Below are positions 2,663-5,659 of a stretch of 5,659 nucleotides of DNA, piece by piece (within the stretch, counting starts at the first letter, position 1; each line of letters begins with the position of its first letter). The stretch lies in IMG/VR virus record IMGVR_UViG_2534681772_000009, positions 1 through 5,659 of that record. One strand, written 5' to 3'. The DNA is from a virus (taxonomy: Monodnaviria; Loebvirae; Hofneiviricota; Faserviricetes; Tubulavirales). The translations under genes were made by a program, and so were the position numbers. Under the pieces are notes generated by a model, which did no database searches, had not been told where the DNA came from, and was given only the letters and a program-made list of their open reading frames with translations.

Positions 2663-3906
2663 TCAGTTCAGGTTGTCCCGGAACAGTTCACCGCTCCTCG
2701 CGGCGCTGCGGGGCGTCGCCCTGCTCCGGTCAACCTTTCTGACCTGAAGCATCACCATAATATCAGTCTTGTTGCTTTCACTGGTACGGGAACCGAAGAA
2801 GCTCCAGCCGGAACTGGCCTTACTGTCTTTCTGTTCAGCAAGGCCACCAAGTAAAATAATATCACCATCTGCAAGGCTGACTTCGGTTGTTACATCACGC
2901 TTGATAAGGGTTGGCGAGTTATTGACGCCGGTTTCAGTGGTCACAAAGTTGGAAAGCTGCTGCTGAATCTTGAGATCCATTGTCCGACTTTTGATTGATG
3001 GCGTCACGTTAAACAAAACACCGCTGGAACGATATTCAACGGATTGCGTTGTCGTATTGTTATTCACCGTAACACTGCCCAGTACTGGCACATCAGAGCC
3101 GACTGAAAAAGACGCTGAGGCATTATTTTTACCCGCAGTCGTGGCGCACTGACAACAGTAAAACGACTGTCGGTTTTCAGCAGATTGAAAATGGCATCAA
3201 TGGAGCCGGTTCGAATATTGATAAAATTATCCAGTCCGGCAGCACCAACTGAAATATTGAATTTATCAGACAGAATTTTAGCCGCTAAAAGAATGCCGGA
3301 GCCGTCAGACTGCGAGGTCTGAACCTCAAAAACATAACCAGAAACAACCACTTCATCACTCATCGTATCCAGCGAAGTGACCAGTGTTTTCAGGATGGCG
3401 ATATCCTCTTTCGTACCATAATAAACCAGAATATCACCGGTTCGATTGATGTTGTTGCTTGCCCCTGATGAACCTTTTAGCGAATCGTCAGAAATCACGG
3501 CTCCACTGTTATTGAAGGAGCCTGAAACGTAGCCGCCAAGAATATCAGACAGGTAGGCAACAGAACGGTACTGAGGCGTATAAGTCCATGTATAACGTGG
3601 CTTAACCGGCTCTTTCGGCGTATAGGGCGCGATAAAATCAACACCCTTTTTCGTCCATATTCGAATGTTCATATTGCCAAGATAACGGGTTACAAATTCC
3701 CGTTCATCAATATCAGGTGTTAACCTGAATGTAATCATTCGTTCATCATTAACAAGCTGTGGATCTAGCATATACGGGACTTTAAGCACCTCACTGTAAA
3801 TAAGAGAAATAGCCTCCGGTAGCTTGACTTTATTTAATTCAAGCTCTGACCCTGCGAAAGCACATGAAGAAAATAGTAGCGTTAATGCGAGTAAAATCTT
3901 TTTCAT
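2663..3906 (-). pseudogene. Filamentous-phage pIV-type secretin (gene IV), interrupted by a -1 frameshift (or base-call error) in a homopolymer run
   Basis: ORF 3064..3906 has a Sec-type signal peptide (MKKILLALTLLFSSCAFAGS) and an N-terminal secretin-like region ending ...RFTVVSAPRLRV. ORF 2663..3091, in the -1 frame, continues with the secretin C-domain (ASASFSVGSDVPVLGSVTVNNNTTTQSVEYRSSGVLFNVTP...DGDIILLGGL...). The frames meet at the A5 run at minus-strand 3130-3126; a sixth A restores ...SAPRLRVKNNASASFSVGSDVPVLG..., which matches the spacing of the equivalent GspD/pIV segment. The ATG at 3904-3906 overlaps the pI stop (TAATG). Confidence 0.85.
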
Positions 3907-4931
3907 TATTTTTTCCCCGTATAAAGCGTCACACGCTCACCATCAATAATTCCGCTCATCAACATCCCTTTGTAATTAAAACTGGATGCAGGAACGGCAC
4001 GCAAAACACCGGCACCGTTAACAAGAATCACAAACGCCCTGCCTTCACTGGTCATTCTCCCTGATATACGCCACTCGGTTGAAAGTGGCGGTTCAGCTGG
4101 TTCTGAGGGAGTATCTGGTGCTGGAGTAGCAGCGGAAGAACGAAACATGGCCGCATCACGTACATCTGTTGTAGTCAAATCTGGCGAGGGATCGCTTCGG
4201 CCAAACGTGCTGAAAAATGAGTAAATCAGCCAGCCTGACCCGATAAACATCAATGGAAAAAGCACAAGAAAGAACCTGACTTTGCCAGAATTCCAGATGC
4301 TCTGGCGTTTATCTGTCTGCTTTTCATTACCGTTATTTCCTTCATAACTTTTGTAAAGTTCAAAAATATCAGGGTTATATTTATTGCGATAACTGGTGAC
4401 GAGGTTGCTTTTATAGATTTTGTGGCCTGAATATACGTCAATGCAGTAATGATTATTCAGGCCCAACGCTTTCAGCTTGCGCATCCGGTAAGTTGTTTCT
4501 ATTTTGTCTTTCAGAAAGCGAGCAATATTAGAAAGTGACTGATTTACAATAACCAAATCACAGCTAATCCCCGTTTCAGGGTGCGTAAAATGACGATGTT
4601 CAGCAATAAATGATTTCTTCTCAGCCGTCATATCCTTATCACTACCGAAGATTCGCCATGCTTCATCGATAACAATTAAATCACCAAACTGGCAAAAGCT
4701 CCCTTCCCCACCTTTAAAAGGAAAGAAATCTGCTTTAAGCACATCATCATTATCCACAACAATAATTTCTCCCGTTGCATCAGGATAACGTTCGGTGATT
4801 TTATCTTTTTGTAAACCATAAATGTTCGTCACAACTCTCCGGCCGCTGGTAAATGCCGGAATAATGACATTGCAAACGGCTTCATAACTTTTTCCTGAGC
4901 CGGGTATGCCAATATATGCAGAAATAGCCAT
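3906..4931 (-). CDS. Filamentous-phage assembly ATPase pI (Zot family, P-loop NTPase)
   Basis: 341-aa ORF. N-terminal Walker A GIPGSGKSY, Walker B-like LIVIDEAW, and a central hydrophobic membrane span (VRFFLVLFPLMFIGSGWLIYSFF), the architecture of pI and Vibrio Zot. Sits between pVI-like and pIV-like genes as in Ff phages. Start ATG 4929-4931 has GGTGAG upstream. Confidence 0.9.
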   Translation of the reverse strand: MAISAYIGIPGSGKSYEAVCNVIIPAFTSGRRVVTNIYGLQKDKITERYPDATGEIIVVDNDDVLKADFFPFKGGEGSFCQFGDLIVIDEAWRIFGSDKDMTAEKKSFIAEHRHFTHPETGISCDLVIVNQSLSNIARFLKDKIETTYRMRKLKALGLNNHYCIDVYSGHKIYKSNLVTSYRNKYNPDIFELYKSYEGNNGNEKQTDKRQSIWNSGKVRFFLVLFPLMFIGSGWLIYSFFSTFGRSDPSPDLTTTDVRDAAMFRSSAATPAPDTPSEPAEPPLSTEWRISGRMTSEGRAFVILVNGAGVLRAVPASSFNYKGMLMSGIIDGERVTLYTGKK

Positions 4932-4934
4932 AAC

Positions 4935-5219
4935 TCACCCTATAACAGGAATACGTCGAATAACAAAACGAGTAGCCATTGCGGAGATAATCATACTAAT
5001 CCCCTGTGGTAATTTACTCAGGTTAATGAAGTACCAGAATCCGTCTGATAAATTGGCAAACAGCGATGAGAGATTGCTTGAATCTGGCAGTAACTCAACA
5101 AGGATTTCAACGAGGCCCTGGACTACAAAATACAGCGCAAAGAATACGACGAATTTAATAATCAATGACCGGAATACAAAACCTAACAAAGTATTTAATG
5201 CACTAATCAGAATTCCCAA
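4935..5219 (-). CDS. pVI-like minor coat protein (small, very hydrophobic); start codon uncertain
   Basis: 94-aa hydrophobic ORF between pIII and pI, the gene VI position in Ff phages. The in-frame start is TTG at 5217-5219. A well-placed ATG (5222-5224, 7 nt after AAGGAG, which directly follows the pIII stop) is one nucleotide out of frame across a T4 run. Confidence 0.6.
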   Translation of the reverse strand: MGILISALNTLLGFVFRSLIIKFVVFFALYFVVQGLVEILVELLPDSSNLSSLFANLSDGFWYFINLSKLPQGISMIISAMATRFVIRRIPVIG

Positions 5220-5237
5220 AACATAGTTGCACTCCTT

Positions 5238-5659
5238 TTAGGCACTCAGAATAATACGGAGCGCAACAAATCCCCATATAATCAGAAATATGGTTTCTAC
5301 GGCGCTTCTGTTCTGCTCAATTAACGGACAATGGGAGTCAATTCTGTACTGGTGATTAAACACGCTGAATTCAACAACGGGGCAGGATGCTGAACGAGAG
5401 CCGATGTTAAATTCGTTTGTAAAAGGCAACAAGTTAATAATTGGCGTTAAAATATCTCTTGCCGTTGGCGTTTCTTCAAGCTCAGGCTCTTTTACACCGG
5501 GATCTTCTCCCAAATCTATATTGCCATTATTTCCAGTGTCAGATCCTGAGTTGTTATTAATGGTAATATCAATATTGACGTCAGCCCCTGCACTGTCAGA
5601 TACAGGTGAAAGCATATCTAATAACGTTGGAGATAGCCTAAGTTCCGACATCGCAGAAG
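5238..5659 (-). CDS. pIII-like minor coat / adsorption protein, C-terminal portion (N-terminal domains lie beyond the window)
   Basis: Frame is open to the window edge. It has a Gly/Ser/Asn-rich linker (NNNSGSDTGNNGN), then two Cys separated by 17 residues with an EFS motif between them (CPVVEFSVFNHQYRIDSHC), then a C-terminal hydrophobic anchor (IFLIIWGFVALRIIL). This mirrors the C-terminal domain of Ff pIII as I recall it. Gene order pIII-pVI-pI-pIV supports the call. Confidence 0.7.
   Translation of the reverse strand, partial: SAMSELRLSPTLLDMLSPVSDSAGADVNIDITINNNSGSDTGNNGNIDLGEDPGVKEPELEETPTARDILTPIINLLPFTNEFNIGSRSASCPVVEFSVFNHQYRIDSHCPLIEQNRSAVETIFLIIWGFVALRIILSA

Follow-up and report, generated by a model that had tools for sequence, protein, structure and literature searches.

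Assembly and export genes of a CUS-1/YpfΦ-type filamentous prophage at dif, with a secretin gene probably split by sequencing error

Background

The filamentous phages CUS-1, from Escherichia coli O18:K1:H7, and YpfΦ (CUS-2), from Yersinia pestis, are 99% identical over 7.1 kb and are found as tandem copies at the chromosomal dif site, with an intact dif at the 3' end and with two open reading frames (ORFs) without predicted function, YPO2280a and YPO2281, adjoining attR (PMC4266046). The same paper covers the organisation, dif integration, tandem copies, mutants and puvA gene of YpfΦ, and reports, citing Chouikha 2010, that no phage particles are produced when either YPO2277 or YPO2279 is disrupted. 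YPO2279 has been stated explicitly to be Zot, and the YpfΦ secretin has been named GspD2 (PMC10354491), while CUS-1φ and YpfΦ have been classed as CTXφ-related integrative mobile elements exploiting Xer (IMEX) that integrate as single-stranded DNA (ssDNA), and a folded attP of the CTXφ type has been ascribed to both (PMC3089051, PMC3442271). Here we analyse a stretch of viral DNA of 5,659 nucleotides (IMG/VR record IMGVR_UViG_2534681772_000009, positions 1 to 5,659), which as a whole we refer to as the window. Its right-hand part carries four genes in the order pIII-pVI-pI-pIV, all on the minus strand, and very probably represents the assembly-and-export half, distal and 3', of a filamentous prophage of the CUS-1/YpfΦ type (Inoviridae) that sits at chromosomal dif and is transcribed from the minus strand.

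CTXφ is not known to encode a secretin and relies on EpsD, the secretin of the type II secretion system (T2SS) of its host. A further group relevant to the comparison is formed by the UPΦ phages, which combine integration at dif with every core gene of the filamentous coliphages in conserved order (PMC7307601).

Identity of the prophage

At the DNA level, window positions 1777-5659 are 99.46% identical, over 3,884 aligned nucleotides, to the tandem prophage of Y. pestis NCTC5923, positions 777-5659 share 99.9% identity with the E. coli TW10590 chromosome, and positions 1763-5659 are 99.7% identical to strain SF-173 and 99.3% identical to NU14, a strain of the O18:K1:H7 type; UTI89 is a further carrier of the phage. 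Because the DNA is near-identical, and given the published work, we take the block in the window to be the CUS-1/YpfΦ phage itself. It has the same gene order as that phage, two function-less ORFs by attR and, on the pIV side, an intact dif; its relatives carry the prophage in tandem copies, and a mapping based on gene order equates YPO2277 with pIII (puvA), YPO2278 with pVI, YPO2279 with pI (Zot) and YPO2280 with the secretin. Three features set the locus apart from the described phages: the window copy carries private single-base insertions and deletions (indels) that break pIV and shift the start of pVI, the chromosomal side of dif is occupied by a tyrosine-recombinase island interrupted by the insertion sequence (IS) IS2 instead of the usual E. 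coli flank, and the accessory genes at the far (attL) end, which lies outside the window, vary by strain.

Private frame breaks aside, this is an ordinary and already described phage, and both its own secretin and its integration at dif have been published before. What we report is the re-identification of a phage described in 2002-2007, the secretin of which was taken up again in 2023, and it carries little weight as a discovery, the phage, the secretin, the dif integration and a modest role in the virulence of E. coli K1 and Y. pestis all being in the literature.

When one genome per bacterial species was scanned with the pI protein, a single locus was returned, that of Y. pestis NCTC5923, with a protein identity of 100%. 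Among complete E. coli genomes, about 102-105 of the 5,426 (~2%) carry the phage, with a median of two copies that usually stand in tandem at dif. A DNA search of the block against the 50,697 phage records of INPHARED gave four short matches of 65-68% identity to uncultivated inoviruses, none of them covering more than 11% of the block, and since these were the only matches, CUS-1/YpfΦ is absent from that collection.

Gene layout and junctions

Reading along the minus strand, the block enters at the right edge of the window with the 3' end of the pIII gene (puvA/YPO2277 homologue, 5238-5659), of whose 520 codons the final 139, with the TAA stop, lie in the window. The stop, at 5240-5238, is followed directly by the Shine-Dalgarno sequence AAGGAG (5237-5232), which lies in a short spacer (5225-5237) in front of the pVI gene (4935-5224; DUF2523, YPO2278 homologue), a hydrophobic ORF of 94-95 codons. 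From the TGA of pVI (4937-4935) to the ATG of pI (4931-4929) there is a gap of 3 nucleotides, GTT. The pI gene (3906-4931; YPO2279 homologue), which encodes a Zot-family assembly ATPase of 341 amino acids, is intact, and its stop overlaps the start of the pIV secretin gene (2663-3906; YPO2280/'GspD2' homologue) in the sequence TAATG at 3908-3904. By analogy with Ff, packing as close as this would fit translational coupling of the four genes.

An earlier note, made from the letters of this DNA, had described these three tight junctions, the order pIII-pVI-pI-pIV, a phage-borne secretin and a position next to dif, and all of these are present. Two of its statements need amendment. The AAGGAG stretch does follow the pIII stop, but one of its A residues (plus-strand T at 5236) is a private insertion of the window, and the relatives read TAAAGGAG here. 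Likewise, the phage does have a pIV-type gene of its own, but in the window this gene, which in the relatives has 414 codons, is split into two ORFs, which the note had missed.

Proteins of the block

The intact pIV of the relatives matches, over its full length, PHROG 1012 ('protein IV of M13', E 3e-137), contains the Pfam Secretin domain (E 1e-24) and matches the structure of f1 pIV, 7OFH (E 2e-10). It has an N-terminal hydrophobic segment that resembles a signal sequence. A protein search of phage records with pIV found ten uncultivated inoviruses with identities of up to 49%, and no Ff or IKe match at E ≤ 1e-5.

The pI protein belongs to the Zot family (Pfam Zot, E 2e-26; PHROG 197, 'Zot-like', E 9e-94) and is identical (100%) to the Y. 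pestis NCTC5923 protein and to WP_001007923.1. It has a Walker A motif, GIPGSGKS, at residues 8-15, a Walker B motif, LIVIDE, at residues 85-90, and a single transmembrane segment at residues 218-241. The pVI protein matches Pfam DUF2523 (E 2.5e-20) and PHROG 974 ('minor head protein', E 7e-30), as well as PHROG 306 ('Ace-like', the Ace-like family of CTXφ), and its hydrophobic segments fit a small hydrophobic minor coat protein encoded between gIII and gI. Sequence searches of the PDB with pI, pIII and pVI gave nothing meaningful.

The pIII fragment is identical in 139 of 139 residues to WP_000741236.1 of TW10590 and ends in a C-terminal hydrophobic anchor of 22 residues (residues 118-139). 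Neither Pfam nor the PDB yielded a sequence match for pIII, and the full-length protein of the relatives falls into PHROG 3942, a family of unknown function (E 8e-251); in strain 510016, RefSeq labels the pIII remnant 'virulence factor PuvA domain protein'. Our assignment of pIII is based on its position, on the C-terminal anchor and on the literature on puvA and the YPO2277 mutant (PMC4266046). The 520-codon pIII gene annotated in the relatives (TW10590 locus L001, 13460-15022) begins with GTG and lacks a signal-like N-terminus. A Met about 57 codons into this frame, which precedes a hydrophobic, signal-like stretch (MSGVATWAGIAAAVSSFVPSSLS), is a candidate for the actual start.

The dif site and the attachment sequences

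The window contains an exact 28/28 match to dif at 1764-1791 on the minus strand (GGTGCGCATAATGTATATTATGTTAAAT), where none would be expected by chance. The site lies 871 nucleotides beyond the pIV stop and forms the pIV-side boundary of the prophage (attR). Homology to strains with a different left flank begins at 1763, and with the second tandem copy, as with Y. pestis, it begins at 1777, inside the central region of dif; these break points imply that the XerC arm and the first central bases are shared with the phage and that the XerD arm is chromosomal. In the relatives, the hybrid site at the tandem junction and at attL reads GGTGCGCATAATGT(A/G)CGACTCGTTATGT, and the hybrid sites have the XerC arm and 3-4 nucleotides of the central region in common.

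At the tandem junction of SF-173 (locus L002, 18081-18174), two inverted dif-like sites surround a GC-rich hairpin, namely GGTTCGCACAA-TGACG-TTATGCTAAAG and TTTCAACATAA-CGAGTCGTACA-TTATGCGCACC, the spacers of which are unequal in length (5 and 11 nucleotides). This is the folded ssDNA attP architecture of the CTXφ type, as seen in the relatives, attP itself being outside the window.

A different arrangement is found at the internal junction of TW10590 (locus L001, 17759-17800), where no dif-like site separates the two prophage copies. In this strain the repeat unit measures 7.3 kb, compared with 9.1 kb in SF-173, and is devoid of the 65-amino-acid ORF, of attP and of the accessory genes, and the internal copy could not integrate by itself.

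Comparison with other filamentous phages

The locus shares features with several described groups, and the earlier note had called it Ff-like, had contrasted a secretin of its own with a position at dif like that of CTXφ, and had proposed a comparison with the proteins of CUS-1, YpfΦ and the Ff, IKe and If1 phages. That comparison gives 99.5% nucleotide identity to YpfΦ of Y. pestis and, among the proteins of the block, a significant BLASTP match to M13/IKe for pIV only (26-28% identity, E about 1e-15); the pI match, at E 0.25, is marginal, none is seen for pVI or pIII, and gII, from the other half of the phage, is weakly similar to that of IKe. The Ff-like character therefore applies to the gene order and the tight packing but not to the sequence, in which pIV alone resembles M13/IKe, and we regard the block as one that works like an Ff module but stands outside both the Ff (Inovirus) and the IKe (Lineavirus) genera. 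With Ff (M13/f1/fd) and IKe it has in common the order gIII-gVI-gI-gIV with near-abutting or overlapping genes. As in Ff, pI is a P-loop protein with one transmembrane segment, and the secretin is of the same size, 414 amino acids here compared with 426 codons for M13 gene IV and 414 amino acids for the f1 pIV chain of 7OFH. In contrast to the CUS-1/YpfΦ phage, neither Ff nor IKe integrates or carries a dif-like attP (PMC7307601), and the repressor and the accessory ORFs carried by CUS-1/YpfΦ also distinguish it from Ff.

The resemblance to CTXφ is of another kind, and comprises integration at dif by the host XerCD recombinases without a phage integrase, the formation of tandem arrays, a folded attP with two inverted dif-like sites (as observed in the relatives; PMC3089051, PMC3442271), a Zot-family pI and Ace-like homologues of pVI, as well as accessory genes placed between the assembly genes and attR, where CTXφ has ctxAB (PMC4266046). 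The CTXφ-like placement at dif that the earlier note described is supported both in position, by the dif match, and in mechanism, by the hybrid sites and the folded attP of the relatives. Unlike CTXφ, the CUS-1/YpfΦ phage encodes pIV, and there are no toxin genes here. As a contrast with CTXφ, a phage-borne secretin in a prophage at dif is not new, since YpfΦ has already been described in these terms (PMC10354491).

UPΦ phages (UPΦ901; dif-integrating, IKe-like prophages of Enterobacterales) share with CUS-1/YpfΦ their hosts and tandem integration at dif, and their gII and gV are more than 85% identical to those of YpfΦ (PMC7307601). In their morphogenesis genes, by contrast, they resemble IKe and are less than 20% identical to YpfΦ (PMC7307601), and the block in the window is of the YpfΦ type.

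Private differences in pIV and pVI

Six differences are private to the window, namely four single-base indels in homopolymers (three insertions and one deletion) and two nonsynonymous substitutions. The deletion affects pIV, where all relatives have a T6 run and the window has T5 at 3126-3130 (A5 when read on the coding strand, in codons K260-N261), so that the frame shifts after codon 260. As a consequence of this split, the gene reads as one ORF at 3906-3064, with 260 correct and 20 out-of-frame residues, and another at 3091-2663, and this distal fragment still matches the Pfam Secretin family (E 5e-16). The insertions are at 5214, 5218 and 5236, and the substitutions, at 4964 and 5114, both lie in pVI. 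Because of the extra bases at 5214 and 5218, the ATG with which pVI begins in the relatives (5224-5222; canonical start ATGTTTGGGATT) is out of frame, and the open frame of pVI in the window begins at a TTG at 5219.

Five of the six differences fall within 273 nucleotides (4964-5236), and in the remaining ~4.6 kb a single base differs from TW10590. The pVI changes occur in none of 103 E. coli records (~178 copies), nor in Y. pestis, and the T5 allele is found in one of the 103, that of TUM14759, in which most genes of the prophage array are annotated as frameshifted. Such a pattern is the signature of an unpolished assembly. We also considered a programmed frameshift in pIV as a candidate and rejected it, T5 not being conserved and its only other occurrence being in this error-rich assembly. 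Since the changes are private to the window, located in homopolymers and clustered, they are likelier to be errors than biology, and we consider that they probably reflect local sequencing or assembly error rather than decay of this copy. The reads should be checked before the prophage is called defective on the strength of what appears to be a secretin pseudogene.

The upstream half of the phage

To the right of the block, the loci of TW10590, SF-173 and NU14 continue with the rest of the 520-codon pIII gene, followed by genes for a coat-like protein of 77 amino acids (PHROG 2186, 'virion structural protein', with a weak match to Phage_Coat_B), a membrane protein of 83 amino acids, the ssDNA-binding protein G5P and the replication protein G2P, and by a divergent gene for a helix-turn-helix repressor. 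The earlier note had placed the replication and coat genes beyond the right edge of the window, and this is where they are in TW10590, SF-173, NU14 and Y. pestis, that is, in every near-identical complete locus that we examined. At a coverage of at least 80%, the half from pIII to gII is present in 98 complete genomes, compared with 96 for the morphogenesis block.

A deleted form of the phage is seen in E. coli 510016 (locus L011, 12199-13379), in which IS1 replaces the region from the N-terminus of pIII to most of gII, and pIV-pI-pVI are intact beside dif.

Alternative readings

Four points weigh against taking the block as the distal half of a CUS-1/YpfΦ-type prophage. Read literally, a frameshifted pIV and an out-of-frame canonical pVI start would leave this copy unable to export virions alone; the genes upstream in the window's own genome are deduced from the relatives, the window ending inside pIII; pIII has no detectable similarity to Ff pIII, either by BLASTP against M13/IKe or against PDB chains; and the identity with CUS-1 in particular would follow, on sequence grounds, from the matches to YpfΦ and to strains of the O18:K1:H7 lineage together with the published 99% identity of CUS-1 and YpfΦ. 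The first of these could mean that the prophage is the same but that this copy is truly defective, with a real slippage event (T6→T5) having inactivated the secretin and damaged the start of pVI, in which case the copy would be a non-producing remnant or would depend for export on a tandem sibling copy or on a host secretin. In its favour, all six differences from the closest relative are private ones, the window also shows IS2 activity, and defective copies do occur naturally, as the IS1-deleted remnant of strain 510016 illustrates. However, all four indels are of a single base and lie in homopolymer runs, the clustering of five of the six differences in 273 nucleotides is typical of a local stretch of low quality, the only other record with T5 is an assembly with most of its prophage genes frameshifted, and none of the pVI changes recurs in Y. 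pestis or in the ~178 other E. coli copies, so that we consider a true defect to be unlikely, although far from negligible. One could speculate further that the changes are real and regulatory, with slippage in the A6/T6 tract switching the secretin off and the start of pVI being remodelled, and with export being phase-variable or dependent on a sibling copy or a host secretin, but we regard this as improbable. Were it true, a real loss of the secretin would represent a natural intermediate between phages at dif that encode a secretin (Ff and YpfΦ being secretin-encoding phages) and those that, like CTXφ, borrow one.

Another alternative, already raised in the earlier note, is that the morphogenesis genes are an isolated remnant of a phage that has lost its replication and coat genes. 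The window does stop inside pIII, so that the genes upstream of it are out of view, strain 510016 harbours such a remnant, and an IS element is already present near the locus in the window. Against this, the pIII frame of the window runs 256 nucleotides past the break point of 510016 (5403), the upstream half is found in about as many complete genomes as the morphogenesis block (98 and 96, as given above), and TW10590, the closest relative at 99.9%, carries two full copies of the phage, and we regard the loss of these genes as very unlikely. The annotations in RefSeq, 'type II secretion system protein GspD' and 'zonular occludens toxin family protein', would by themselves point to a bacterial virulence or secretion locus, with a type II secretin and a toxin, and not to a phage assembly module, and the best PDB sequence matches of the secretin domain are indeed GspD proteins. 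Yet with 104 bits the match to TIGR02517, the GspD equivalog model, falls short of the cut-off of 351, with only the C-terminal secretin domain aligning, whereas the full-length match is to phage pIV (PHROG 1012). There are no other T2SS genes adjacent, the flanks consisting of inovirus genes and dif, the active peptide FCIGRL of the Vibrio cholerae Zot toxin is absent (PMC10354491), and disruption of YPO2279 abolishes the production of phage particles (PMC4266046). With the GspD model this far below its cut-off, we reject the reading as a T2SS or toxin locus, to which we attach hardly any probability. The RefSeq label 'GspD' is over-specific, and the product names 'GspD' and 'zonular occludens toxin' need correcting here to phage pIV and phage pI, respectively. 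A CUS-1/YpfΦ-type prophage at dif stays the preferred reading, with the frame breaks as probable errors.

Proposed mode of action

By analogy with Ff, pI would act as an inner-membrane P-loop ATPase of the Zot family, and pIV, as an outer-membrane secretin, would build with it a machine spanning the cell envelope that assembles and extrudes the filament of ssDNA and coat protein without lysis. The terminating end of the virion would be capped and released by pVI and pIII, as membrane-anchored minor coat proteins, and pIII (PuvA) would later mediate attachment and entry. Production of the four proteins may, by analogy with Ff, be coupled at the level of translation through the Shine-Dalgarno sequence after the pIII stop, the 3-nucleotide gap between pVI and pI, and the TAATG shared by pI and pIV. 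For YpfΦ, both the production of virions and the loss of particles upon disruption of YPO2277 or YPO2279 come from published experiments (PMC4266046). Entry into dif would, as for CTXφ, proceed without a phage integrase, by way of the host recombinases XerC and XerD acting on a folded attP made of two inverted dif-like sites, and the resulting prophage, usually in tandem, ends with the two small ORFs after pIV followed by a reconstituted dif. What we observe directly are the identity with YpfΦ/CUS-1, the protein families, the dif site, the junctions between the genes and, in the relatives, the structure of attP.

Small ORFs and surroundings of the block

Between pIV and dif, two phage-borne ORFs lie on the minus strand, both inside the match to Y. 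pestis. One, of 82 amino acids (2326-2574; WP_001399975.1), is the YPO2280a homologue by position and has no match in Pfam, PHROG or NCBIfam; the other, of 65 amino acids (1932-2129; WP_001298440.1), adjoins dif, is the YPO2281 homologue by position, and falls into PHROG 6642, of unknown function (E 1e-50), with no Pfam or NCBIfam family. They occupy the position that the cholera toxin genes have in CTXφ.

An Rfam scan of the whole window found no family, and scans for promoters (9 sites compared with 8.1±2.9 after shuffling) and for terminators (6 compared with 3.6±2.3) stayed close to expectation. The terminator scan places a weak hairpin after pIV (2609-2580), and the sequence separating pIV from dif has short, imperfect inverted repeats.

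The left end of the window (1-776) is the 3' part of IS2, with rve domains, orfB at 13-765 and the right end of the element near 776. It interrupts a tyrosine recombinase gene, of which codons 1-151 of 291 remain (777-1229), on the XerD-arm side of dif, and this junction is in no complete E. coli genome of the collection. The recombinase gene is no part of the phage, but heads a variable island of TW10590 that lies between dif and the fimA/ydeT cluster and is absent from SF-173, NU14 and Y. pestis. As no second dif-like site was found in this island to the left of dif, it is not shown to be a Xer-dependent element. The G+C content is 39-47% in the prophage part of the window, compared with 55% in IS2. 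In the TW10590 island (locus L001, 1-9987, and locus L007), the recombinase gene overlaps that of an integrase of 516 amino acids with a weak match to 'gamma-mobile-trio GmtY', and the island further contains genes resembling those of a cyclic-oligonucleotide-based antiphage signalling system (CBASS), encoding a nucleotidyltransferase, a ThiF/E1-like protein, a Mov34/JAB protein and an HNH endonuclease, as well as a restriction endonuclease gene and several IS elements.

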